Shown here in pieces: positions 2,042 to 57,220 of a DNA stretch of 64,000 nt; the stretch's first letter is position 1, and each line of letters opens with the position of its first letter. This DNA comes from Candidatus Woesearchaeota archaeon. Its GTDB lineage: Archaea; Nanobdellota; Nanobdellia; Pacearchaeales; GW2011-AR1. The stretch lies in NCBI GenBank assembly GCA_964651965.1, contig CAZYZS010000006.1:42-64041 (forward strand), read 5' to 3'. Under the pieces are notes generated by a model. It saw only the letters and a list, made by a program, of their open reading frames with translations, was not told the origin of the DNA and did not search any database. The translations under genes and the position numbers were made by a program.

Positions 2042-4624
2042 ATGGTTTGGATAAAACGATTTTTTAGAAGAAAAGTAAAAGAAAAAAGTTATATTAATAA
2101 GAAACAAAAGCCCCGTATTTCTAAGAGGAAAATAAAAGCAGATATATTCAAAAGAGAGGCGTCTAAAACTCTTTTAAGAGACCCGAGTATAATGGAGGGG
2201 CTTGACGAGGGGCAAAAAAGAGCAGTTCTTTCTGATAATTCTCGTATATTAGTCCTTGCTGGAGCAGGAGCTGGCAAGACAAAAGTTCTTCTCTCAAGAA
2301 TCTTGCATCTTGTTAAAAACGAAGAAGTCCCATCGGGGAATATACTAGCCGTAACTTTCACTAAAGATGCAACGAATGAAATGAAAAATAGATTGATCGA
2401 ATATTTTGAACCCTCTTTCAATGAAATAGTAAAAGCAGGTTTAGGAAGAGCGGAAATGGATAAAATTCATAGAGAAGTAATGAAAAGACACCCGGAAATT
2501 CGCCATATTTTTATTAGTACAATTCATTCTCTTTGTTACTATATGCTTAAAACAGATGGGGCCAAGGTTTACAATACACATTTTAAGGTAATCAGAAGTG
2601 ATGAACAAAAAACTGAAAGCTATCAAGCGGATTATAGTCAAGACAGTTTAATAAAAAATTTAGTAAAAAAATTGATAAGTGAAGATTCTGAAATATTTGA
2701 AAAAGTTAGAGGGTATCTTCAAAAGTACATTGCTCAAGAACGAAAGAGTACTATAGAACTACTTAATCAAAAACCGATTAGAGAAGAACTGGGATATTGC
2801 ACCATGGACAAAAAGTATAGAGTGAGGTCAAAATCAGAACAGTTCATTGCAAACTTTCTTTATGATAGAGGTATAGTTTATGAATATGAGAAAGAAGCTA
2901 CTTGGATTGAAAAAGAAGACGAGAGTAAATCGTATCATCCGGATTTTTATTTGAGTGATTACGGAATTTACATCGAACATTGGCTTGTTGCTAGCAATAA
3001 AGAAAGATTACTTTACCCCCCTCAAGGATTCGATAAAGAACAGTATTTAAGAGAAAGAAATTGGAAAATTAATCAGTTCAAAAAGCACAATAATGTTTTA
3101 GTTGAAACTTTTGAAAAACAGATGCATGGAGACTTGAACGAATTTTACTCATATTTAGAATCTGAATTAATAAAAAAAACTCATGGAGTTATTAAATTCA
3201 AAGCTATTCAGAACCCTATTGACTTATTAGCACCACTAAATACTGAACTGGGCATACTTGCGACTAGTTTGACTAAAACAATCAATCTTGCAAAGTCAAA
3301 CAGAGTTTCTATTGATACAATTAAGGAGAATCTTGAAGATGAAAAGCATGATGAAATAATTGATTTTTTTGAGATTTTCTTCAAAGTTTTTTCTCAATAT
3401 GAAGAATTCTTAAAAAAGGAGAGTCTAATTGATTTCAATGATATGATTCATAAAGCCATTGACTTATTTAACTTAGATAAGCAAGTTTTGAAAAAATATC
3501 AAGAGCAATTTAAACATATATTAATCGATGAGTATCAAGATGTGTCTGCCGCTCAAGTTGAGCTTATTAAACTGCTTTTAACAAAAGACAATAATCTATT
3601 CGCAGTAGGCGATGACTGGCAAAGTATCTATGGGTTTAGAGGTTCAGAAGTGGAGTACATCTTAAATTTTAAAGAGGAATTCAAGGGTTCTGAGATTATC
3701 CCACTTCCATATAATTATCGTTCTGGAGAAAACATTGTTGGGGCTTCTAAAAAAGTAATTCTAAAGAATCCAAAGCAAATGAAGAAGAATATTTCCGCAA
3801 AAAACAGTTCTTTAACTGAAAAAATCTATCAATTTAATGCATTTAATGAAGTAGACGGCGCAAGATTTATTGTTGAAAAAATAAGAAAACTTCTCTCCGA
3901 AGGCATAAAATCTAATGAGATATTGATTCTTTATCGTAGAACGTCTCACATTAAGCAATATAAAGAATACTTTTCAAAATTCCCAGAAATTAGAGGAATC
4001 TCTCTAAAAACAATTCATGGTTCAAAAGGGTTAGAATCCAGGGTAGTATTTGTAATCGGATTATATAATGGACCTGGAGGATTTCCTTACGTCTGGGAGG
4101 ACGAAAGAATTATTCAGAAGATAAAGAGCACCCCTATAAGCAAGAAAGAGGAAGAAGAAAGGCGCCTGTTTTATGTTGCAATGACTCGTGCTAAGGAAAA
4201 ATTATATTTAATTTCTGAACTTGGCAACGTTTCAGAATATTGCAAAGATATTCCTAAAGAGTATAAAGATGTGCTTTGTTCAAAATCATTCCCTTTAGAG
4301 GATTTGTTTGAAGATTTTAAGAGAGTGCTTGCTCTGTTGCATGAAGGAAAAAGTATATCTGAGATAGCCAAAATAACGGAAACTGATGAAAAGACAGTCG
4401 AACAAAGAATTGCATGGTTAATATTAAAAGGAATTCTGCCTGTTTCGCATTTCGTTGATGATGATACTTATTTATTGATTGCAAGGAGAATAGGCAAAGA
4501 TGCTTCAAAGGTTAAATTGCTGACCCCGCTTAAAAGAGAGCTTCCTCAAAGCGTAGGATATGGGGAGATAAAGTATGTTATCGCAGATTTAAAGAGAAAA
4601 GAAGCTATTGAAGAGTCTCAATAA
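2042..4624 (+). CDS. SF1 UvrD/PcrA-like DNA helicase with inserted PD-(D/E)xK-like nuclease module and C-terminal HTH
   Basis: 860-aa ORF. Helicase motifs: Walker A LAGAGAGKTKVL, AVTFTKDA, STIHSLC, motif II LIDEYQDVS, motif III GDDWQSIYGFRGS, YNYRSG, TIHGSKGLE, FYVAMTRAKEKL. A ~300-aa insertion between TIHS and DEYQD carries SKSEQFIANFLYDRGIVYEYE...YHPDFYL...GIYIEHW. The C-terminus GKSISEIAKITETDEKTVEQRIAWLILKG looks like an HTH. Confidence 0.85.
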   Translation: MVWIKRFFRRKVKEKSYINKKQKPRISKRKIKADIFKREASKTLLRDPSIMEGLDEGQKRAVLSDNSRILVLAGAGAGKTKVLLSRILHLVKNEEVPSGNILAVTFTKDATNEMKNRLIEYFEPSFNEIVKAGLGRAEMDKIHREVMKRHPEIRHIFISTIHSLCYYMLKTDGAKVYNTHFKVIRSDEQKTESYQADYSQDSLIKNLVKKLISEDSEIFEKVRGYLQKYIAQERKSTIELLNQKPIREELGYCTMDKKYRVRSKSEQFIANFLYDRGIVYEYEKEATWIEKEDESKSYHPDFYLSDYGIYIEHWLVASNKERLLYPPQGFDKEQYLRERNWKINQFKKHNNVLVETFEKQMHGDLNEFYSYLESELIKKTHGVIKFKAIQNPIDLLAPLNTELGILATSLTKTINLAKSNRVSIDTIKENLEDEKHDEIIDFFEIFFKVFSQYEEFLKKESLIDFNDMIHKAIDLFNLDKQVLKKYQEQFKHILIDEYQDVSAAQVELIKLLLTKDNNLFAVGDDWQSIYGFRGSEVEYILNFKEEFKGSEIIPLPYNYRSGENIVGASKKVILKNPKQMKKNISAKNSSLTEKIYQFNAFNEVDGARFIVEKIRKLLSEGIKSNEILILYRRTSHIKQYKEYFSKFPEIRGISLKTIHGSKGLESRVVFVIGLYNGPGGFPYVWEDERIIQKIKSTPISKKEEEERRLFYVAMTRAKEKLYLISELGNVSEYCKDIPKEYKDVLCSKSFPLEDLFEDFKRVLALLHEGKSISEIAKITETDEKTVEQRIAWLILKGILPVSHFVDDDTYLLIARRIGKDASKVKLLTPLKRELPQSVGYGEIKYVIADLKRKEAIEESQ

Positions 4625-4690
4625 TCTGCTTTATGCAAACGCCCATACAAAGCCTTAGTTATCTGCATTACGCTTAGCTACATTTATTTT

Positions 4691-4900
4691 CTATAACTGG
4701 CTTATATAACCTTTTGATTCCTGCATGGGTTCTCTAGGTTTATCTTCAAGACGAACTAATTTTTTAATAGAAGAGAGGGGCACTATGACAATTTTCCCAC
4801 TATCTTTATATATGAATGTCTGGTTTTCGAAATCAATTTTCCCTTCGAATTCTCCTTCCATTTCTCTTTCCCCAACAAAGTAAACTTCATATTTTGTCAT
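4691..4900 (-). CDS. hypothetical small protein (69 aa)
   Basis: ORF only. A TATA-like GATATAAATAG lies ~20 nt upstream of its ATG on the minus strand (plus-strand ctatttatatc ~4921-4931). No recognisable motif. Confidence 0.4.
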   Translation of the reverse strand: MTKYEVYFVGEREMEGEFEGKIDFENQTFIYKDSGKIVIVPLSSIKKLVRLEDKPREPMQESKGYISQL

Positions 4901-5024: not shown

Positions 5025-5119
5025 CGCCCATGCCAGGAATCGAACCTGGAGGCCCTGACGGGCCGGCCTTTGTGGTTTTTTAGTTCCAGGGCCGTGGAGT
5101 ACCATTGTCCCACATGGGC
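5025..5119 (-). tRNA. tRNA-Ser (anticodon GGA) with a 14-nt intron in the anticodon loop; CCA not encoded
   Basis: Hand-folded from the reverse complement: acceptor GCCCATG/CATGGGC plus discriminator G; 3-bp D stem; anticodon stem CGGCC/GGCCG; loop CTGGAA-[intron]-A with anticodon GGA at 5087-5085. It has a long variable arm GCCC-GTCA-GGGC (class II tRNA, fits Ser) and T arm CCAGG-TTCGATT-CCTGG. ORF 4925-5113 is a shadow over this gene. Confidence 0.85.
5070..5083 (-). other. tRNA intron (CTAAAAAACCACAA) at the canonical 37/38 position
   Basis: There are 21 nt between the two halves of the anticodon stem instead of 7. Intron CCA can pair with anticodon-loop TGG, as expected for a bulge-helix-bulge-like splice substrate. 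Exact boundaries are +/-1 nt by eye. Confidence 0.7.
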
Positions 5120-5120
5120 A

Positions 5121-5807
5121 TTAATAAGTGATTTTACCTAACTTATCTCTTTTATCAGGATGATAGAAGTTTATAAGTTTTTTGTAAACATTTATGTTCT
5201 CTTTCCTTCTAACAAACAACATCCCATATGGGCTATGTTTTTTAATTCTCGGTTTATAAGGGCCATATAAACTGGAGTGAATTCCCAGAAGTTCTAAACT
5301 TTGCTTTATTGATTCTAACCCTAGATAATTGACTGATTTGACTTGTATATATTTATGGGATAAATTAACATAAGCTTCACAATCAAAAAAGCATTTTATC
5401 CATTCTATCAAATGTTTTTTAGGCAATTCTTTGGGAATTGCCCATTTATAATGTCCATACTTGCCAAACGAATAAAGATTTAGGCAGGCGGGCTTATTTT
5501 TTATTTGAACATTAAAGCATCCTCCATAATAGACTATCTTTGGAGAGATATTAAATTCTTTTTCAAACAGATTGACAACTCTTTTTGCAAGAGCTTCATT
5601 ATCCAAGAACACCCTAATTTCATAATGCATATCTTTATTTTTGTCTTCTCTTATAGCTATCCACCCATCTCCGCACAAATACGCATTTATTGCTACCTTT
5701 TCTTTAGAGATAACGTTATTTATTCTTACTTTAGAGTGCTCTTTTTTCCATCTGTTCTCTAATCCAATTTTACTTATCCTTTTGTAGAATTCTGCATCTA
5801 TTTTCAT
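5121..5807 (-). CDS. free-standing LAGLIDADG-type (double-motif) homing-endonuclease-like protein
   Basis: 228 aa. First motif INAYLCGDGWIAI (aa ~40-52) and second motif LIEWIKCFFDCEAYV (aa ~135-149) lie ~95 aa apart, the usual spacing of single-chain LAGLIDADG enzymes. The stop codon (5123-5121) ends 1 nt before tRNA position 1 (5119). Confidence 0.6.
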   Translation of the reverse strand: MKIDAEFYKRISKIGLENRWKKEHSKVRINNVISKEKVAINAYLCGDGWIAIREDKNKDMHYEIRVFLDNEALAKRVVNLFEKEFNISPKIVYYGGCFNVQIKNKPACLNLYSFGKYGHYKWAIPKELPKKHLIEWIKCFFDCEAYVNLSHKYIQVKSVNYLGLESIKQSLELLGIHSSLYGPYKPRIKKHSPYGMLFVRRKENINVYKKLINFYHPDKRDKLGKITY

Positions 5808-5858
5808 AAAAGATTTAACAGACAGAAGTTTATAAGTTTTCCTATAATGCGCAGTACC

Positions 5859-6470
5859 TTAAATCAGTTTTTCAAATTCTTCTGTTATTTGCTTATGTAT
5901 TTCTTCCACTGATTTTGTGCCGTCTATTATAACTATTTTTTCATTTGGAAGATGTTTTAATGTTTCCATGTATTTTTGTCTCACTTTTTCTTGAAATTCT
6001 GTGCTTGCTTCTAGTCTGTGCTTGGTTCTGTTATCTTTATCCATTCTTTCTTGCCCGATTTTTGCAGGAACATCTACAATAAATGTTATGTCTGGAATTG
6101 GCAAGCCATTGTGCATCTCTATTAGCTTGCTTGGCTCTAGGCCTTGTGCAGATTGGTAAGCAATTGTTGATAATTTATACCTGTCAGAAATAACATAATG
6201 ACCTTTTTCTAAGTGAGGCAGAATAATTTCCTGGGTTTGTTCTTTCCTGTCGTTTACAAACAATTCTGCAAGTTTTTCTGATTGCGACTCAGGAGAATCG
6301 TTTGTTTTGAGAAGCTCTCTTATTTCTCTTGCTTTGTAAGGGTTTCGTGTTAAAAGAATATGGTTATATTTGCTTAGTTTAGAAAGATATTCGACAAATT
6401 TAAATATCTGTGTGGATTTTCCGCATCCATCGATTCCTTCAAAAACAATAAACTTTCCTCTTTTGTCCAT
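5859..6470 (-). CDS. tmk: thymidylate kinase
   Basis: KFIVFEGIDGCGKSTQ P-loop, VISDRY motif, ~200 aa length typical of dTMP kinase. Confidence 0.9.
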   Translation of the reverse strand: MDKRGKFIVFEGIDGCGKSTQIFKFVEYLSKLSKYNHILLTRNPYKAREIRELLKTNDSPESQSEKLAELFVNDRKEQTQEIILPHLEKGHYVISDRYKLSTIAYQSAQGLEPSKLIEMHNGLPIPDITFIVDVPAKIGQERMDKDNRTKHRLEASTEFQEKVRQKYMETLKHLPNEKIVIIDGTKSVEEIHKQITEEFEKLI

Positions 6471-15568: not shown

Positions 15569-15988
15569 ATGGATACTTTTGAAAGAAAGTACGGGATTAA
15601 GGAAGATGAAAAAACCAAAAGGTTTCATGAAAGCAGGAGAATGTTTTGTATTTATCAAGGCAAATTAGTTATTGCAGAGCCTAACTTACCTTATTCACAT
15701 GCTGTTTGGTTTCAAAAGAATGGGTGGATGTCTGAGCAGGAGGATAACCTTATGAACGAGATTGTTAGGGGATGTATAGACAAGGAAGGAAACGTTTATT
15801 TTTATGCGGGATATGACTTCCAAATAAATAATCAGATTGAACTTATTCTTTTCAGTCACTTGAGCGAATTAGTTGAAATACTTAAATTAAGGCCAGATGC
15901 CAAAATATTTGGAGGTTCGATAAACCAAAAAGCAGGTGCAAAATGGCTTCCTAGAAAAGAGTACGGGAAGATTAAAGATAATTTATGA
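15569..15988 (+). CDS. hypothetical protein (139 aa)
   Basis: ORF plus promoter spacing; no motif I recognise. Confidence 0.5.
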   Translation: MDTFERKYGIKEDEKTKRFHESRRMFCIYQGKLVIAEPNLPYSHAVWFQKNGWMSEQEDNLMNEIVRGCIDKEGNVYFYAGYDFQINNQIELILFSHLSELVEILKLRPDAKIFGGSINQKAGAKWLPRKEYGKIKDNL

Positions 15989-15990
15989 AT

Positions 15991-16004
15991 AAAAAACAAT
16001 AAGG
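15991..16004 (+). repeat. 14-nt intergenic motif AAAAAACAATAAGG, copy 2
   Basis: Directly abuts TTTATAAT (16005-16012) upstream of trxB. Confidence 0.6.
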
Positions 16005-16054
16005 TTTATAATATATCTTTTATTCCTTATTTTATAAAAAGGTGAAGATAAAAA

Positions 16055-16972
16055 ATGCTATATGATTTAATAATTATTGGTGGCGGTCCTGCAGGCATGA
16101 CTGCTGCAATTTATGCGGCAAGGCAGAAAATAAAGTTCATGATTATAAGCATGGATGTTGGCGGGCAGATGGGCTGGAGTTCTAAAGTTGAAAATTATCC
16201 AGGAGTTCCTGATAAAAGCGGGATTGCGCTCGTTGAGAGATTCCAGAAGCATATGCAGGATTATAAAATAAAAATAAAACAGGAAGAAATCTTAAAATTA
16301 GAGAAGAATAAAAATATATGCGTTGTAAGGACAAAGAAAAATTTTTATGAGAGCAAAGCTGTGATAATTGCTGCTGGGAAAAAGCCTAGAAAATTAAATG
16401 TGCCAGGAGAAGATAAATTTACAGGGTTGGGAGTTAATTACTGTGCTGTATGCGATGCTCCGCTTTTTAAGGATAAAATCTGTGCGGTAGTTGGAGGAGG
16501 AAATTCAGGAATGGACGCTGCTTTGTTCCTTTCAAAATATGCAAAAAAGGTTTATATTTTGGAATATTTGCCCAAGTTAGGTGGAGATAACTTTCTAAGA
16601 GAAAAAGTCCTTAATGAGAAAAAGATAACAGTAATTACAGGAGCTAAGATGAAGGAGATTATTGGAAATAAAATTGTTGAAAAAATAAAATATGAGAAAG
16701 AGGGAAACGAAAATGAATTGCCTATCGATGGAGTTTTTGTTGAAATAGGGCTTATAAGCCAGTATGATTTTACAGATGTCCAGAAAAACAAGTGGGGGGA
16801 GATAATGATATTTAGAAGCACTATAAGCCATGAGGAGAATATGACTGACATACCTGGAATTTTTGCAGCAGGCGACTGTACGGACATCCCTTCTAAACAA
16901 ATAATCGTAGCAGCAGGCGAAGGTGCGAAAGCAGCTCTCGCTTCTTTTAACTATATTAACAGGTGGAAATAA
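16055..16972 (+). CDS. trxB: thioredoxin-disulfide reductase (low-Mr NTR type)
   Basis: YDLIIIGGGPAGMTAAIYAAR (FAD), redox CAVC in NYCAVCDAPLF, VVGGGNSGMD (NADPH), AAGDC. Confidence 0.9.
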   Translation: MLYDLIIIGGGPAGMTAAIYAARQKIKFMIISMDVGGQMGWSSKVENYPGVPDKSGIALVERFQKHMQDYKIKIKQEEILKLEKNKNICVVRTKKNFYESKAVIIAAGKKPRKLNVPGEDKFTGLGVNYCAVCDAPLFKDKICAVVGGGNSGMDAALFLSKYAKKVYILEYLPKLGGDNFLREKVLNEKKITVITGAKMKEIIGNKIVEKIKYEKEGNENELPIDGVFVEIGLISQYDFTDVQKNKWGEIMIFRSTISHEENMTDIPGIFAAGDCTDIPSKQIIVAAGEGAKAALASFNYINRWK

Positions 16973-27900: not shown

Positions 27901-28508
27901 ATTTTTTTATACTTTTTAAAAGCTTCTGTTCCTCTTGAACAGTTCACCTCAAAGCTTTTCCCGTCGAATCCGTAAAAACCTTTGATGAGCTCTTTTTTTC
28001 TTACTAAATGAACATCTCTTAAGTTTATAAACTTATCTGAAATTTTGTTTGCGCAGCAGAGCGCTCTCTTTTTTCTATAGTCAAAAAAAAGTAATTTTTC
28101 CGTCGACAATTCATTATTGCTCACCATTTCAACAACTGTGCGGTGGACTTCCTTGTGTCTTATGTGCCCATACTCCCCATTTTCTCCATGAGTGAAGACG
28201 CGGTTGTACTTCTTGTGCCTCACAATTTTTTTTACCCTTTTTTTAATATCCTCCGTCGAGACCTCTTTAAAATATCCATTTTCGCTGTCATCTAGATCCG
28301 AAATGAAGCAAGTTGCGTTGTAGAATTTGCAGACCTTTTTGAATTTTGGCATTCTATCTTTGTCATTTTTTCTGCAGAGGCTGATGATTGTAACATCCCA
28401 TTTGTCTTTGTTAGCAAGAAGCGTTCCGCCCATCCAAATAGTCTCATCATCGGGGTGCGCTACAATAACCAAAACTTTTTTCTTTTTTATGTTTTTCATA
28501 CTGAGCAA
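27897..28508 (-). CDS. PIG-L/LmbE-family N-acetylglucosaminyl deacetylase
   Basis: VLVIVAHPDDETIWMGG plus downstream His motif GHIRHKEVH. The stop overlaps the GT4 start by 4 nt. Confidence 0.85.
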   Translation of the reverse strand: MLSMKNIKKKKVLVIVAHPDDETIWMGGTLLANKDKWDVTIISLCRKNDKDRMPKFKKVCKFYNATCFISDLDDSENGYFKEVSTEDIKKRVKKIVRHKKYNRVFTHGENGEYGHIRHKEVHRTVVEMVSNNELSTEKLLFFDYRKKRALCCANKISDKFINLRDVHLVRKKELIKGFYGFDGKSFEVNCSRGTEAFKKYKKI

Positions 28509-28562
28509 AAGGTTTTTAACTAATTAAATCTTTCTTTATGCATCAAAAAAGAGGAATCAAAA

Positions 28563-28820
28563 ATGGGAAAGATAACTACAGGAGGAATTGTTACAACTTC
28601 TATAATCAGCGCGTTCACAATAGCTGCTGCTTTGATATGGAAAGATGTTATAGATGGCGTGATAAAACTTATTTTTCCTGCAGACCAGCTTCTACTCAAG
28701 TTTATTGCAGCTATCTTAGCTACCATTCTGGTTGTTGTATTCATCTATATTATACTAATGGCTGAATCTGAGACTAAAATTGTTTTGAGAAAATTTAAAT
28801 TGGGCAAGAGGAAAAAATGA
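28563..28820 (+). CDS. small two-TM membrane protein with basic tail (85 aa)
   Basis: AAGAGGA SD upstream; two helices; tail RKFKLGKRKK. ATGA overlap with the pfkB-family start; the tail codons AAGAGGAAA are the SD of the next gene. Confidence 0.5.
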   Translation: MGKITTGGIVTTSIISAFTIAAALIWKDVIDGVIKLIFPADQLLLKFIAAILATILVVVFIYIILMAESETKIVLRKFKLGKRKK

Positions 28821-47676: not shown

Positions 47677-48474
47677 ATGGCTCACTATTTAAGAAATCTA
47701 AAGCAAGTAAGTAAAGTAGATTGTTCTTGTGGTTGGAGTAGGAGGCCATTTGCTGACCATCCGGCGTATGCTATCGCAAGCTTACATGGAACTATTTTCA
47801 CAGCTGAAAAAGAGGCATTTCCCCATTTTCATGTTCCAGTAGGCGATAGGAGGGCTACACACGAAACTTATCTAGTAACTTCTGAAAATACAAGAAGGGG
47901 CGCTCTAATTTATCTGGGAAAGATGGCAGTCGAAGCAAAACCCGGAATTGTTGTTTATGTTCATCCAAACACAGTTCACGGGGGTATCGGCAATTTTACA
48001 GCTTTAATCTTGGGTTCTCCTGGTTTTTCGAAAGAGGGTAATGTCGAAATTGATGACACTGAAAGCAAAGATACAATCATACTTAGGAGTAAGGGAAATA
48101 TAATTACACCCTCAGAGTACAAAGAGGGACTTGTTTTGCTAACTGCTAAGAAACCTACATTATCCTTTTCACATTTTTATGGTAAAGAAGGAATAGCTTT
48201 ATTATTAACCCAAACAGTTGAGAATAGACTATATTGCGCAGCAGTTCCGTATGATAGATTAGATTGGGACGCTTTTCAAAGAGCAAATGGTCCTACCTAT
48301 GTAACTGTGCTTGGTGGAGAAGGAAGTATTCATATCGAAGGTGGAGAGACAGCAGTTAGAGAACTAGATACTTTATTATTAGAGCAAGGAACAAGCTTCT
48401 CGTTAGAGGGGGGCTTGTCAACGGCTATTATGGTCTTACATCCACAAAACGTAGAAAAATTGATAAGACATTAG
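47677..48474 (+). CDS. hypothetical cupin-like protein
   Basis: FPHFHVPVGDRRATHETYLV...VVYVHPNTVHG resembles a cupin metal motif. The C-terminal half may be a second beta-barrel. Ala/Gly/Arg-richer composition than neighbouring genes. Confidence 0.45.
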   Translation: MAHYLRNLKQVSKVDCSCGWSRRPFADHPAYAIASLHGTIFTAEKEAFPHFHVPVGDRRATHETYLVTSENTRRGALIYLGKMAVEAKPGIVVYVHPNTVHGGIGNFTALILGSPGFSKEGNVEIDDTESKDTIILRSKGNIITPSEYKEGLVLLTAKKPTLSFSHFYGKEGIALLLTQTVENRLYCAAVPYDRLDWDAFQRANGPTYVTVLGGEGSIHIEGGETAVRELDTLLLEQGTSFSLEGGLSTAIMVLHPQNVEKLIRH

Positions 48475-48480
48475 ATAAGT

Positions 48481-49614
48481 TTACCAGTATTTTTCATAGA
48501 TATTAAAGGTTTTTTTGGCTATTATGTTCCAGCCAGAAACATTTTTCACATATGCTAGGGCATTTCTGCTGTATTTTTCTCTTAGTTTTTTGTCTGCTAA
48601 AAGCCTGTTTATTGCTCTCCAGAAATGCCTTCTGTTTTTTACTGCTATTCCTGCATGGCTGTTCCTTATCTCTGCCCCAAGCCCTTCAATATCAGTTACA
48701 ATTGAAGGAGCTCCAACTGAGAATCCGTGAGCTAAAACTCCTGACTGACTTTCACTTTTATAAGGAAGAATATGAATATCAAAACTTGCCAGCCTTCTAT
48801 AAAATTCTATTTCGCTATAATTCTTCACACTAAATTCAATGTTTTTCATTACAGGGGAGGCTAAGATAGCCTCTAGGACTTTATCAATATACAACCGAGT
48901 TTCAATTACAGATTCTGGCTTTAATTCAAGGGCCAAAATGGCATTTGGAAACCTTTTTACTACCCTTGGCCACTGCTTAATCAGTGTTCTGAATCCTTTT
49001 CTCTCGCTTGCCAATCCAGCTGTTCCTACTACCAAGTCTTTGTCTGTATAACCAAAAGCTTTTCTGACCTCTTCTTTGTTTATTTTGACATCTTCTCTTG
49101 AACCATGGGGGAGGATATACACATTTTTAGGCGCCCATCCTATATTCTTTTTCAAGTTGTCTTTTTGATATTGTTCATGTAGAATTCCTGCATCAAGTTT
49201 TTTCAGAGACTCGCTTACAAAGTAGGAAAAATCAGGATTAAGCTCTGCATAAACGCTATGATAAGTCATAACAACAGGAATGCCGAGTTCTTTAATCATT
49301 CCGATAAGTTCAAGTACTCTTTTATTTTTATCCTGCTCTGTTTCGTACAAGCCATATTCATGCTGTATATGTACTATCGAGGGTTTTTCTTTTTTAATAA
49401 CGGCAAGAACTTTATAATGCCATTCTTTATCATTTTTATTGTAGATAACTTGATAATCTGCCATCTCTGCATCGGTATGCGCAATTATCTTAAACTGTAT
49501 TTTCTTTCCTGTTTTTTTGGCATATTTTTTTATTGAAGAAATATAATTTTCTGAATAGAAAGCAATACCACACTGCCTAGGCAAGTAACTTGAAATCCAT
49601 ACCACTTTTTTCAT
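48481..49614 (-). CDS. GT4-family glycosyltransferase
   Basis: GT-B length; GTAGLASERKGF, ILPYKSESQSGVLAHGFSVGAPSIVTD. Confidence 0.75.
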   Translation of the reverse strand: MKKVVWISSYLPRQCGIAFYSENYISSIKKYAKKTGKKIQFKIIAHTDAEMADYQVIYNKNDKEWHYKVLAVIKKEKPSIVHIQHEYGLYETEQDKNKRVLELIGMIKELGIPVVMTYHSVYAELNPDFSYFVSESLKKLDAGILHEQYQKDNLKKNIGWAPKNVYILPHGSREDVKINKEEVRKAFGYTDKDLVVGTAGLASERKGFRTLIKQWPRVVKRFPNAILALELKPESVIETRLYIDKVLEAILASPVMKNIEFSVKNYSEIEFYRRLASFDIHILPYKSESQSGVLAHGFSVGAPSIVTDIEGLGAEIRNSHAGIAVKNRRHFWRAINRLLADKKLREKYSRNALAYVKNVSGWNIIAKKTFNIYEKYW

Positions 49615-54199: not shown

Positions 54200-55359
54200 T
54201 AAGTAACTTCTACATTTATTCCAGCCATTGCTTCTTTTATCTCTTTTTTTGCCTCTTCTAAGCTTTCTTGAAGCTTTTTAAGCCTTTTTTCTTCTGTTGC
54301 CTTTTCTTCATTGAGGGACTCTATTTTTAAAAGCAACTCTTTTATCCCTTTTTCTATATCTTCAATGCCCGTTTCTTCGATTACTATACCTTGAATTTCC
54401 TTCTCTTTTTCTTCTATTTCCCGCATCTTATTTGTGATATCTGCGGTTTCAAGCTTGGCTTCTTTAAGTAGAACTATTAAATCTTGCCCTTTTGTTTTGC
54501 TAAAAGTGTTTCCGAAATTTTCTCTGTACTGTTTTATTAAAGTCATCTCTTTCTCAAAGATGTGATAGAAACCAGCCAGAGCCTTGAAGTCAACTATCGC
54601 CCGTAAATTAGATATTTCTTTTTCTAGCTCTTCTTTTTTGGCATTAAGATGCTCTCTTTTTTTATTTTCAGCTAGGAATTTTTCAGAGGCTTTAATTTTT
54701 TCAATCTCTTCTTCTTTTGTTTTAATCTGGCTTTTGAAATTGCTTATTTTTTCTTCTTGTTCCCCCATGTTTTTCTTAATTTCTAGCCCATTTTTCTCTA
54801 GTTCATAAAACCTTTTTATTTTTATTTCTGTTAAGGAGATTGCCTTTAATTTTTCAATTGTGCCTTTGTTTTCTTCTAAAATTCTTTTTAAACCCCTTAG
54901 GAAATTGTTTATGCTTTCTTTAACTTCGCCTAGCTCTTTGCCTATGAGGAAAGTTGCTTTCTCGAAGCTTAATCTTGATTTCCTCTCAAAATCAGAAAAA
55001 ATAGAGTTTATTTTTTCTACAAATTCCTTATCTGGCTCTTCTTCTCTCTTAGTTATTTCTTTTAGGTTTTCTGCTAATTTTTCCAGTTGATAAATATAAT
55101 TTTCTAAGTTCTCTTTAACCACCAGTTTTATTTTATCTTCGGCTTTCTTCCCTTCTACGTTTACTCTCTTAAGAACACTTATTTCTTTTTCTAGCTCTTC
55201 TGTAAGCTGCAGCAGCCTATCCCGGATTTCTTTTAGAAACAGCTGTTCTTGTTTTTTTGCCTCTTGTTTTTTTGCCTGAAGCCAGCCATCTAGTTTGGCA
55301 AAGCTTACGCTCTCTTTCTCTACTGGTTTGCTTTTTTTAAAAAAGTCCCAAAATCCCAT
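54196..55359 (-). CDS. Glu/Lys-rich coiled-coil protein (387 aa)
   Basis: Near-continuous heptad-like E/K/L/I repeats; no enzymatic motif. Confidence 0.6.
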   Translation of the reverse strand: MGFWDFFKKSKPVEKESVSFAKLDGWLQAKKQEAKKQEQLFLKEIRDRLLQLTEELEKEISVLKRVNVEGKKAEDKIKLVVKENLENYIYQLEKLAENLKEITKREEEPDKEFVEKINSIFSDFERKSRLSFEKATFLIGKELGEVKESINNFLRGLKRILEENKGTIEKLKAISLTEIKIKRFYELEKNGLEIKKNMGEQEEKISNFKSQIKTKEEEIEKIKASEKFLAENKKREHLNAKKEELEKEISNLRAIVDFKALAGFYHIFEKEMTLIKQYRENFGNTFSKTKGQDLIVLLKEAKLETADITNKMREIEEKEKEIQGIVIEETGIEDIEKGIKELLLKIESLNEEKATEEKRLKKLQESLEEAKKEIKEAMAGINVEVTY

Positions 55360-55407
55360 TACCTACACAATAAAAAGGTATTTAAATAAGCTTTTCTTTG
55401 CCTTACA

Positions 55408-55755
55408 ATGGAAAAAAAGATGGGTGGAATAGGCACAGTATCAATTGTTCTTATAGTGGTTGTTTTAGCCTTAATAGCAAGCAACATTTTCTTTTGGGTT
55501 TCTCTCGATAAAGCAAATAAGTCTATCACTCAATTAGCCAGTGTTTCTAAGATAGTTGAAGGAGAAGGGGCTAAAGAACTCAGGGTTTATTTTACAGAAG
55601 AGGAAAGAGAAGTAAAAGAATTTAATACCGATGAATTCTGCACTAAAATATGCAGCGATAGAAAATACGATGGTTATTCAACAGGAGAAGCTATTAATTT
55701 AGGTTCCTCTTACAAATACGAATGCAAGTGTTATATGATTGTTAGAGCAGCATAA
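55408..55755 (+). CDS. small N-terminally anchored secreted protein with 4 Cys (115 aa)
   Basis: TM IGTVSIVLIVVVLALIASNIFFWV, then ...EFCTKICSD...YECKCY. Confidence 0.45.
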   Translation: MEKKMGGIGTVSIVLIVVVLALIASNIFFWVSLDKANKSITQLASVSKIVEGEGAKELRVYFTEEEREVKEFNTDEFCTKICSDRKYDGYSTGEAINLGSSYKYECKCYMIVRAA

Positions 55756-55780
55756 ATCTTATCTTTTTATTTTTTGAGAA

Positions 55781-57220
55781 TCAATACCTTCTTGGGCCAT
55801 CGTATCTTTGATGGCGTCGGTTATCCCTTCTATTATCCCGCCTTCCGTAACCTCTACTTCTGTTATTTCCATATCTTCTCCCTCCGCCGTCTCCAGCATC
55901 TCTGCTATCTTCATGTCTTCTAGGACCATATCCCTGGCTTCTTTGACCATACCTGGAGCTTGTTCTTCCTCTGTTATCTCCGTAGCTGCTTCTTCCACCT
56001 CTAAACCCGCTTCTTCCCTCTCTAAATCCGCCCCCGCCGCTTCTAAATCCGCTGCGCCCCCCTCTAAAGTCTCTTCTTCCAGCAGAAGCCATTCTTATCA
56101 TTATTCTTGTGATAAAAGGTGTTTTTTCTTCAGCTATTTTTAATTCTTCTTCGCTATTTATTATATTGTTAAAGTTTTCATAATCGCGGCTTGCAAGAAG
56201 GTTTATTACTTTTCCTTCTTCGCCCGCTCTTGCAGTTCTGCCTATTCTATGGATATATTCTTTTGCAGTTGGAGGAAGGTCATAATTGTATATATGGCTC
56301 ACGCCTTTTATGTCCAACCCTCTTGCTGCAACGTCAGTTGCTACAAGAACATGCACTTTTTCTGAATGGAAAAGTTCCATTATACGGTTTCTTTTATCTT
56401 GAGAGTAACCTCCATGTATTGGAACTGCTTCTATTCCTGCTTGGTTAAGGTTGCTAGATATAAAATCTACGTTTCTTCTGGTGTTGCAGAAAATCATTAC
56501 GAGTTTTGCTTTTTCGTGCTGTAGAAGGTGGATTAATAGCGAGTATTTCATTCCATCCTGAACATCATAAAATACCTGATGCAGTTTCTTTGGGTCAACT
56601 TGCGGCTCTGCAGAAACTTCTACTGGATTTTTCATGTACCTTTGTGCCATTATTGCAATATCGCTAGATATTGTTGCGGAAAAAAGCATAGTCTGCCTGT
56701 TTTTATTGCAATGGTTAATTATCTTTTCAACATCATCTACAAACCCCATATCCAGCATCCTGTCTGCTTCGTCTAACACAAGGGTGTTTATTTTTGTAAG
56801 CTCAAAAGACCTCCTTGTTAGATGGTCTAGAATCCTTCCAGGCGTGCCTACGACGATATCCGCATACTCAAATCCCCTTATCTGATTTGTTATTGATACT
56901 CCTCCATAAACTGCTATTACGTGGAGATCTTTATACTTAGCGAAATCTAAGAGTTGGGTGGTTATCTGCTCTGCAAGCTCTCTTGTAGGAGTTAACACCA
57001 ATCCTTGGATTCCATGCCCCTTTTTTATATTATTTATTAAACCTGCTGCGAATGCTAGGGTCTTTCCTGAACCAGTTGAGGCTCCAGCTATAACATCGTG
57101 CCCTTTAAGAATTAAAGGTATTGATTTTTCCTGTATTTCTGAAGGAGTTTCAAAACCCCTGTCTTCAATTGATTTGAATAAAGGGTTTTCTTTCCCAAGT
57201 AAGTTTTCAAAGGTTTCCAT
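55781..57220 (-). CDS. DEAD-box ATP-dependent RNA helicase with ~100-aa RGG/RS-rich C-terminal tail
   Basis: Q-motif FETPSEIQ, AGASTGSGKT, PTRELA, VLDEADRMLDMGF, SAT, HGGYSQDKR, YIHRIGRTARAG. Tail RRDFRGGRSGFRSGGGGFREGRSGFRGGRS... Confidence 0.9.
   Translation of the reverse strand: METFENLLGKENPLFKSIEDRGFETPSEIQEKSIPLILKGHDVIAGASTGSGKTLAFAAGLINNIKKGHGIQGLVLTPTRELAEQITTQLLDFAKYKDLHVIAVYGGVSITNQIRGFEYADIVVGTPGRILDHLTRRSFELTKINTLVLDEADRMLDMGFVDDVEKIINHCNKNRQTMLFSATISSDIAIMAQRYMKNPVEVSAEPQVDPKKLHQVFYDVQDGMKYSLLIHLLQHEKAKLVMIFCNTRRNVDFISSNLNQAGIEAVPIHGGYSQDKRNRIMELFHSEKVHVLVATDVAARGLDIKGVSHIYNYDLPPTAKEYIHRIGRTARAGEEGKVINLLASRDYENFNNIINSEEELKIAEEKTPFITRIMIRMASAGRRDFRGGRSGFRSGGGGFREGRSGFRGGRSSYGDNRGRTSSRYGQRSQGYGPRRHEDSRDAGDGGGRRYGNNRSRGYGRRDNRRDNRRHQRYDGPRRY

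Follow-up and report, generated by a model that had tools for sequence, protein, structure and literature searches.

We describe here a LAGLIDADG gene and the tRNA gene that follows it in a 64,000-nt stretch of the genome of a Candidatus Woesearchaeota archaeon (GenBank assembly GCA_964651965.1, contig CAZYZS010000006.1; hereafter the window). The LAGLIDADG gene occupies 5121..5807 (-), starts with ATG, encodes a protein of 228 aa and closes with a TAA stop codon at 5123-5121. A tRNA-Ser(GGA) gene lies at 5025..5119 (-), and the single base T5120 stands between the stop codon and tRNA nucleotide 1 (G5119). An annotation made earlier from the DNA letters (the initial annotation) had placed the stop codon and the first tRNA nucleotide at these positions and had described a free-standing LAGLIDADG open reading frame (ORF) beside a tRNA-Ser(GGA) with a 14-nt intron. 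Re-reading gave the same coordinates; Pfam LAGLIDADG_3 matches the ORF, which is intact, and ARAGORN with introns allowed agrees with the Rfam tRNA model on the tRNA. The source is a metagenome-assembled genome (MAG) of 1.42 Mb that is 83% complete, and the endonuclease ORF is present in it as a single copy.

The tRNA at 5025..5119 scores 41.4 bits against the Rfam tRNA model (expectation value (E) 1.9e-7, E-value mode). ARAGORN (-i) folds it into a cloverleaf with a long variable arm, discriminator G and a 14-nt intron in the anticodon loop, dividing the gene into a 5' exon (5084-5119), the intron (5070-5083) and a 3' exon (5025-5069). The intron is located at or near the canonical 37/38 position and holds no ORF. 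When the anticodon arm and the intron are folded together, the anticodon stem forms, accompanied by a UGG/CCA helix of 3 bp, a bulge of 4 nt on the 3' side and a loop. This is a relaxed bulge-helix-loop, as in canonical archaeal introns. The gene is the sole GGA isoacceptor found in the assembly, whose one further tRNA-Ser match, on contig C2, is Ser(CGA). Default ARAGORN and Rfam in gathering mode over the whole window both missed it.

In the hidden Markov model (HMM) search that the initial annotation had proposed, the protein matched Pfam LAGLIDADG_3 with E 3.3e-10 and 40.5 bits, against a cutoff of 22.5. Two motifs are present, LCGDGWI (containing D47) and FFDCEAYV (containing E144), and the residues G46, D47, G48 and D142, C143, E144 are invariant across 26 homologs of 31-82% identity. 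The AlphaFold2 model has a mean predicted local distance difference test (pLDDT) of 93.2 and a predicted template modelling (pTM) score of 0.87, and its halves each show the expected helix/strand order of a pseudo-dimeric alpha-beta-beta-alpha-beta-beta-alpha fold. Foldseek ranked PI-PfuI (1dq3), the TliVMA intein endonuclease and I-DmoI best (E 1e-9 to 1e-11), with template modelling (TM) scores of 0.73 for PI-PfuI (by query) and 0.75-0.80 for I-DmoI (by target); WhiA and the bI3 maturase stand further down the list. A profile search of PDB sequences likewise returned PI-PfuI (E 4e-13). NCBIfam has no curated family for the protein and gave only weak matches, to intein-bearing IF-2 and V-ATPase models. 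Taken together, the motifs and the predicted fold identify it as a putative monomeric, two-motif LAGLIDADG homing endonuclease. Rfam scans of the window showed neither a group I intron nor any other structured RNA in the vicinity of the ORF, and Pfam and Rfam scans gave no intein signal at it. The gene thus lies outside any intron or intein and adjoins its putative target gene, and is free-standing in that sense.

Homologous loci were gathered from assemblies, GTDB genomes and Joint Genome Institute (JGI) metagenomes (loci are cited below by their L numbers). Linkage was counted over 29 distinct loci in which a complete ORF 3' end and downstream DNA are present. In every one of them (29/29, at 29-82% identity), tRNA-Ser(GGA) is the next same-strand feature 3' of the gene. 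At one extreme the ORF overlaps the tRNA by 67 nt, and at the other its stop codon lies 122 nt before tRNA +1; the spacing is <=3 nt in 11 loci, and the ORF frame enters the tRNA in L055, L006, L007 and L065. The outer neighbours vary among loci and include tmk, HD, phosphatidylserine (PS) decarboxylase, DedA-like and other genes. Upstream of tRNA-Ser(GGA), tmk is found in L003 and L010, which have the endonuclease gene, and in L043, which is without it and has another ORF between. The named relatives that carry homologs are Candidatus Woesearchaeota and Nanoarchaeota MAGs. None of the more distant paralogs (27-35% identity, ~300 aa) adjoins tRNA-Ser(GGA).

The distribution of the family is sporadic. 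Full-length members occur in 7/301 sampled species of the order, and five relatives have a tRNA-Ser(GGA) without such an ORF upstream, among them L043 with tmk still nearby. At L045/G128, an in-frame TAA interrupts an endonuclease gene that is otherwise alignable. About 82 clusters (50% identity) among 1.84 billion representatives match the family profile at E<=1e-30, and no relative of the endonuclease was found in viral contigs (IMG/VR). The initial annotation had asked for tRNA-Ser loci with and without the ORF to be compared, and had named uniform presence of the ORF as an outcome that would speak against its proposals. Uniform presence was not what we found, because the ORF shows presence/absence polymorphism (7/301 species; five ORF-less loci). 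The sporadic distribution, the loci without the gene, the decayed copy and the insertion scars described below all point to a mobile gene.

These scars are remnants of tRNA-Ser genes at the borders of the endonuclease loci. At the gene start of L004, a repeat search found a perfect 26-nt duplicate of AT plus tRNA nt 1-24. An nhmmer profile built from 21 spliced tRNA-Ser(GGA) sequences was then run against 390 nt around each ORF start, and it detected 5'-half scars upstream of the gene in 17 loci (E<1), 12 of them with E<0.05. With shuffled sequences (20 sets), 0-1 matches per set passed E<1 and none passed E<0.05. Almost all of the 5' scars span tRNA nt 1 to nt 28-40, with their far end in the anticodon loop. 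In three loci, a 3'-half scar lies downstream of the intact tRNA: L059 (positions 36-81, E 9e-8), L057 (E 1e-3) and L058 (E 0.08, truncated by the contig end). For L059, the two orphan halves are perfectly complementary in their acceptor strands, GCCCCAA / TTGGGGC, and in their anticodon-stem strands, CGAGA / TCTCG, and both halves differ from the intact tRNA between them. Because the halves pair perfectly with each other and differ from the tRNA that they enclose, they indicate that a unit of promoter, endonuclease gene and whole tRNA was inserted into the anticodon loop of a resident gene. The whole tRNA, and not a 5' half alone, arrived with the ORF, since in L059, L057 and L058 a 3' half follows the complete tRNA.

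Based on these observations, we propose that the window contains a free-standing homing-endonuclease cassette that would cleave tRNA-Ser(GGA) genes and bring a replacement with it, and we estimate the probability of this reading at about 75%. The cassette would comprise a TATA promoter, the endonuclease gene and a whole tRNA, ~0.9 kb in all. Comparison of the loci shows that units of this family have split a resident tRNA-Ser(GGA) in its anticodon loop, at approximately the canonical 37/38 intron position. What remains of the resident gene is an orphaned 5' half before the unit and, where one can still be seen, an orphaned 3' half after it. The tRNA directly behind the endonuclease stop codon is the working copy, a replacement that came as part of the inserted unit. 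The initial annotation had suggested, among other things, a mobile gene that uses the tRNA flank as its homing site. Mobility and a tie to the tRNA remain the preferred interpretation, given the linkage, the patchiness and the scars, but the homing site is probably the anticodon loop and not the flank, because the scars in relatives show insertion in that loop.

LAGLIDADG homing endonucleases typically make site-specific double-strand cuts in DNA sites of about 18-22 bp and leave 4-nt 3' overhangs. With this arrangement, the scar boundaries suggest that the enzyme would cut tRNA-Ser(GGA) genes that have no cassette, at a point within or close to the anticodon arm, and repair would then copy the cassette from the carrier genome. 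The carrier's own tRNA would be spared if its D-arm or anticodon stem differs, or if a 14-nt intron interrupts the site, as in the window. The D-arms of the scars are of the GGCACAATGG.. or TCGCATAA.. type, and these are the types found in genomes without the gene. Eleven cassette tRNAs, the window's included, carry GGGACAATGGTACTCC. In L059, L047, L054 and L044, the working tRNA differs in sequence type from the split resident tRNA, a pattern that indicates probable co-conversion, in which flanking donor sequence is inherited together with the gene.

Gene and tRNA callers handle these loci poorly. Called proteins P0003, P0005, P0011, P0016 and P0021 have N-terminal extensions (e.g. MVLR.., PDGTMVL), and P0005, P0017, P0050, P0052 and P0053 have C-terminal ones (e.g. 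..RPDGTMAMRK); the callers mis-set the starts and ends of the family because these extensions are translated tRNA, either scar or working copy. The cassette tRNA genes and the scars escape default tRNA finders.

In the window itself, family alignment places a partial 5'-half scar of an older resident tRNA-Ser gene at 5835..5858 (-). In the sequence at 5835-5858, GGTACTGCGCATTATAGGAAAACT, the D-loop/D-stem is represented by GGTACTGCGC, the decayed anticodon stem by ATTAT and what is left of the anticodon loop by AGGAAAAC. In a column-by-column alignment this sequence matches the clear scars of L066, L069, L065, L060, L052, L061, L044, L004, L054 and L010, and it is this family alignment that gives the window scar its weight. 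The first ~16 nt of the scar are gone, under the stop codon (5859-5861) of tmk (thymidylate kinase; 5859..6470 (-), Pfam Thymidylate_kin E 1.5e-36). This upstream gene belongs to the host and not to the cassette, whose left border it marks. At 82% protein identity, L003 is the closest relative, and it has the same truncated scar. Between the two loci, the ratio of nonsynonymous to synonymous substitution rates (dN/dS) of the ORF is 0.05-0.11 at dS > 1, similar to the 0.06-0.09 of the neighbouring tmk. Since the truncated scar and the spacing of a repeat pair (see below) are common to L003 at dS > 1, the insertion in the window appears to be old and vertically inherited, yet its gene is intact and apparently under purifying selection.

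A TATA-like box, TTATAAA, is found at 5829..5835 (-), 21 nt 5' of the endonuclease ATG. In the family alignment, the GGAA(A/G) remnant of the scar is followed directly by the TATA box, and the ATG comes 21-25 nt on. The box stands at the same aligned position in 12 loci, and the window's TTATAAA aligns with them. It is likely the promoter of a leaderless endonuclease mRNA, which would start ~22 nt after the box at 5829-5835.

Expression of the tRNA allows two routes. The initial annotation had proposed that the tRNA promoter lies in the 3' end of the ORF, in an A-rich stretch ~22-36 nt upstream of the tRNA, or else that the tRNA is released from a common transcript by RNase P. This stretch, GATAAAAGAGATAAG, is located at 5142..5156 (-), i.e. 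at -37 to -23 from tRNA +1, and overlaps the PDKRDK codons. Where the endonuclease is absent, boxes of the CTTTTTAA type stand at -36 to -27 from tRNA +1, and abutting family members have (G/A)ATAAAA(A/G) equally far from the tRNA. Of 25 cassette loci, 18 have >=7 consecutive A/T nucleotides at -40 to -22, compared with 37.5% of ORF windows (p = 5e-4, with loci that are not independent of one another). In L010, L044, L067 and L054, where spacers are 23-24 nt, the A/T box is the ORF's own '...TTTATAA' end. The first route is thus favoured by the enrichment in the family, but the window's box, only ATAAAA, falls short of the 7-nt criterion of that comparison. For this reason, read-through with RNase P release is as possible as an internal promoter, for which GATAAAAGAGATAAG in the last codons of the ORF is the candidate. 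The tRNA would be made either from this A/T-rich box or by read-through and RNase P cleavage at G5119.

The TATA-like box at 5829..5835 also forms part of a 20-nt direct repeat. Copy 1 lies at 5821-5840 (-). Copy 2, AAAACTTATAAACTTCTATC, lies at 5162..5181 (-) within the 3' end of the ORF, where it encodes KLINFY. The copies agree at 19/20 positions, are 659 nt apart and have the form AAAACTTATAAACTTCT(A/G)TC; a repeat pair with identical spacing occurs in L003. Copy 2 holds a second TTATAAA, 50 nt 5' of tRNA +1, and the sequence CTTATAA(A/G)C at this point is kept at the DNA level across the endonuclease family. The inner copy may be a second promoter, a recombination footprint or a coincidence with a conserved peptide.

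In L003, 59 extra nt (4688-4746) with TTAATG at both bounds are present between the stop codon and the tRNA, and for this reason the window's 1-nt spacer looks like the product of a deletion. The 59-nt insert contains two hairpins, CAGAAATAT..ATATTTCTG and AAAATTCC..GGAATTTT, plus a T6 run, and the L051 spacer contains a similar CAGAAATT-TGGAAAA-TTTCTG hairpin with a GGA 'anticodon'. These hairpins of L003 and L051 may be decayed anticodon arms. The 122-nt spacer of L051 contains scrambled tRNA pieces, as if from repeated events.

Several observations weigh against the cassette interpretation. The window scar is incomplete and, judged by itself, falls short of significance (nhmmer E 2.2, hmm 17-40), and the profile search detected no right-hand (3'-half) scar in the window at E<20. 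The scars of L004, L060 and L061 hardly differ from the 5' part of the working tRNA, and a simple local duplication fits equally well. The type of the tRNA 5' half does not strictly follow the ORF tree, and one tRNA type is common to L089, L063 and L054 across distant ORF clades. Because the tRNA type departs from the ORF tree in this way, we propose that some cassettes may convert only part of the tRNA, or that the cassette copy may later be overwritten with host tRNA sequence. The target site and the mechanism of immunity are deduced from scar boundaries only. Introns occur in 8/29 cassette-linked tRNAs versus 1/5 without a cassette, and immunity based on the intron is unproven since this is no clear enrichment. 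Selection as strong as that on tmk over dS > 1 exceeds what would be expected of a fixed, purely selfish gene. In addition, the genomes compared are incomplete MAGs.

With these points in mind, three other explanations were considered. One is that an ordinary LAGLIDADG gene came to lie beside a tRNA by chance in a compact genome, or was placed there by an annotation artefact. The genome is small and AT-rich, has short intergenic spacers and contains 12 LAGLIDADG_3 matches, all of which would make such a neighbourhood easier to come by. However, the same isoacceptor follows the gene in 29/29 loci across 29-82% identity and changing neighbours, and the scars lie far above shuffled controls. The recurrence and the scar statistics exclude a chance neighbourhood, and we give this explanation practically no weight. 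The initial annotation had also raised a relic of an intron-borne endonuclease. In that scenario, the ORF once resided in a 37/38 bulge-helix-bulge (BHB) intron, and a later duplication or recombination supplied a new 5' half downstream of it, so that the tRNA no longer carried an intron of ~700 nt. This would agree with left scars that end in the anticodon loop, the canonical intron site, and with the intron-encoded I-DmoI being among the nearest structural relatives. It would also agree with the annotated ORFs of L047, L048, L050 and L051, which start at an ATG in the scar D-loop (MVLR...), as exon-fused intron ORFs do. On the other hand, the ORF is inside an intron in 0/29 loci and is followed by a complete tRNA that includes its own 5' half. 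A 3' half after the complete tRNA in L059, L057 and L058 indicates that the whole tRNA came in, scar and working tRNA are often of different sequence types, and the window has no match to a group I intron or another RNA family. As an account of the present state the relic is not supported, and we regard it as improbable, while the 37/38 junction leaves an intron-borne gene possible as a remote origin.

The third explanation, also raised in the initial annotation, is a domesticated LAGLIDADG protein that is immobile and has been retained for a host function; it might, for example, bind DNA or RNA in the expression or maturation of tRNA-Ser and be co-expressed with the tRNA. In its favour is the strength of selection, with a dN/dS of 0.05-0.11 over dS > 1 that equals the value for the housekeeping gene tmk. 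The tight, conserved junction of gene and tRNA and the long vertical inheritance of the same insertion in the window and L003 are in keeping with it, and there is precedent, since WhiA and the maturases are co-opted LAGLIDADG folds and both WhiA and the bI3 maturase are in the Foldseek list. Against this stand the presence of the family in only 7/301 species of the order, related tRNA-Ser(GGA) genes that work without an endonuclease gene, one copy with a nonsense codon, and scars left by repeated insertions in differing genomic surroundings. Loss of the catalytic acids is common in co-opted LAGLIDADG proteins; here both are invariant. Despite the tmk-like dN/dS, the patchy distribution and the nonsense-mutated copy make domestication unlikely. 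An integrase-type element was considered as well and rejected, as no recombinase is present in or beside the unit.

In L007/L008 (GCA_043799715.1, JAZDNM010000003.1), the cassette tRNA-Ser(GGA) is 148 nt long (L007 4689-4836) and seems to contain two or three introns, one of them directly after the D-arm; it scores 34 bits with Rfam and is misread by ARAGORN as tRNA-Leu(GAG). The tRNA-Ser(GGA) genes of L035 (G032) and L065 have homologous 37/38 introns of 101 and 111 nt with the common 3' end ...TTGAT(G/T)AGCTAGCTAGCTG, and the endonuclease gene is present at one of these loci and not at the other. Relaxed ARAGORN (-ps90) also called a tRNA-Val at 28373-28695 (248-nt intron) and a tRNA-SeC at 48465-48547 in the window, both of which are program calls only. 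A further relaxed call, tRNA-Thr at 15793-16544 (660-nt intron), is treated as a likely false positive because it overlaps two protein-coding ORFs and has no Rfam support.

The same genome contains further LAGLIDADG ORFs next to tRNA genes. On contig C2 at ~55263-56126 (L077), an ORF of ~280 aa ends 11 nt inside tRNA-Gly(TCC), and a 33-nt look-alike of tRNA-Gly nt 1-33 stands directly before it. The score of this look-alike is marginal (24, versus a mean of 16 and a maximum of 27 for shuffles), and the layout is the same as that of the Ser(GGA) cassette. On contig C28 at ~3150-4440 (L078), the open frame of a third LAGLIDADG ORF runs through tRNA-His(GTG), and no scar was detected at this locus. 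Genome-wide, Pfam LAGLIDADG_3 has 12 matches, and several lie in long frames that resemble inteins. We would tentatively speculate, while holding it less likely than the cassette itself, that DPANN archaea carry a radiation of natural 'cleave-and-replace' drives, in which each LAGLIDADG clade cuts one essential tRNA gene at 37/38 and brings a resistant replacement. The orphan halves and protective short introns left by such drives could have given rise to split tRNA genes and to the 37/38 intron position.

Homing endonucleases are thought to persist in essential genes by hiding in self-splicing introns or inteins. Harmlessness here seems to be due to the carried working copy of the destroyed tRNA gene, with no intron needed. 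If the cut site is confirmed, the family would represent a natural counterpart of engineered cleave-and-rescue drives and a source of compact enzymes with tRNA-gene specificity. It would also offer a testable mechanism for the clustering of breaks and introns at 37/38 and for the origin of split tRNA halves in archaea.

In the searchable literature, we found archaeal rRNA group I introns and candidate phyla radiation (CPR) rRNA insertions with LAGLIDADG genes, as well as SegB of phage T4, and no description of tRNA-linked free-standing LAGLIDADG genes in archaea. SegB is a free-standing GIY-YIG homing endonuclease in the T4 tRNA gene cluster. It cuts the tRNA gene of an endonuclease-less relative, and its own tRNA region is preferentially inherited without an intron being involved (intronless homing). 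The window's endonuclease gene is likewise free-standing and placed at a tRNA gene, and would follow the logic of intronless homing. However, it is of the LAGLIDADG and not the GIY-YIG type, and its host is a cellular archaeon and not a phage. Unlike the cassette, SegB has neither flanking halves of a split resident tRNA nor a unit of one gene and one tRNA conserved across a phylum-level radiation.

In fungal and algal mitochondria, mobile endonuclease ORFs bring a substitute end for the gene that they interrupt, and the displaced original piece decays alongside. As in the cassette, a carried duplicate keeps the host gene functional without splicing. The mitochondrial ORFs replace the end of a protein-coding gene in organelles, whereas the cassette would supply a whole tRNA, with the resident gene split at the anticodon loop. 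Integrase-type elements of tRNA genes are similar in that the tRNA is the landing site and its function is restored by a copy borne on the element. In contrast to them, the cassette is ~0.9 kb, has a single LAGLIDADG gene and duplicates the 5' half or the whole tRNA, not its 3' end. Synthetic 'cleave and rescue' drives are engineered Cas9 systems in insects. There, the nuclease eliminates the resident copy of an essential gene while a rescue copy that resists it is carried in linkage, and the cassette would follow the same logic.

With respect to the protein, I-DmoI and PI-PfuI / TliVMA have the same fold and are two-motif monomers, and I-DmoI also has D in motif 1 and E in motif 2. Sequence identity to these enzymes is 14-21%, and they reside in an rRNA intron or an intein and are made harmless by splicing. 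The window's endonuclease, in contrast, lies outside any intron or intein and would rely on a replacement tRNA copy instead of splicing. In conclusion, the cassette is closest in logic to T4 SegB and the mitochondrial ORFs that bring a substitute piece, and closest in fold to I-DmoI and PI-PfuI.

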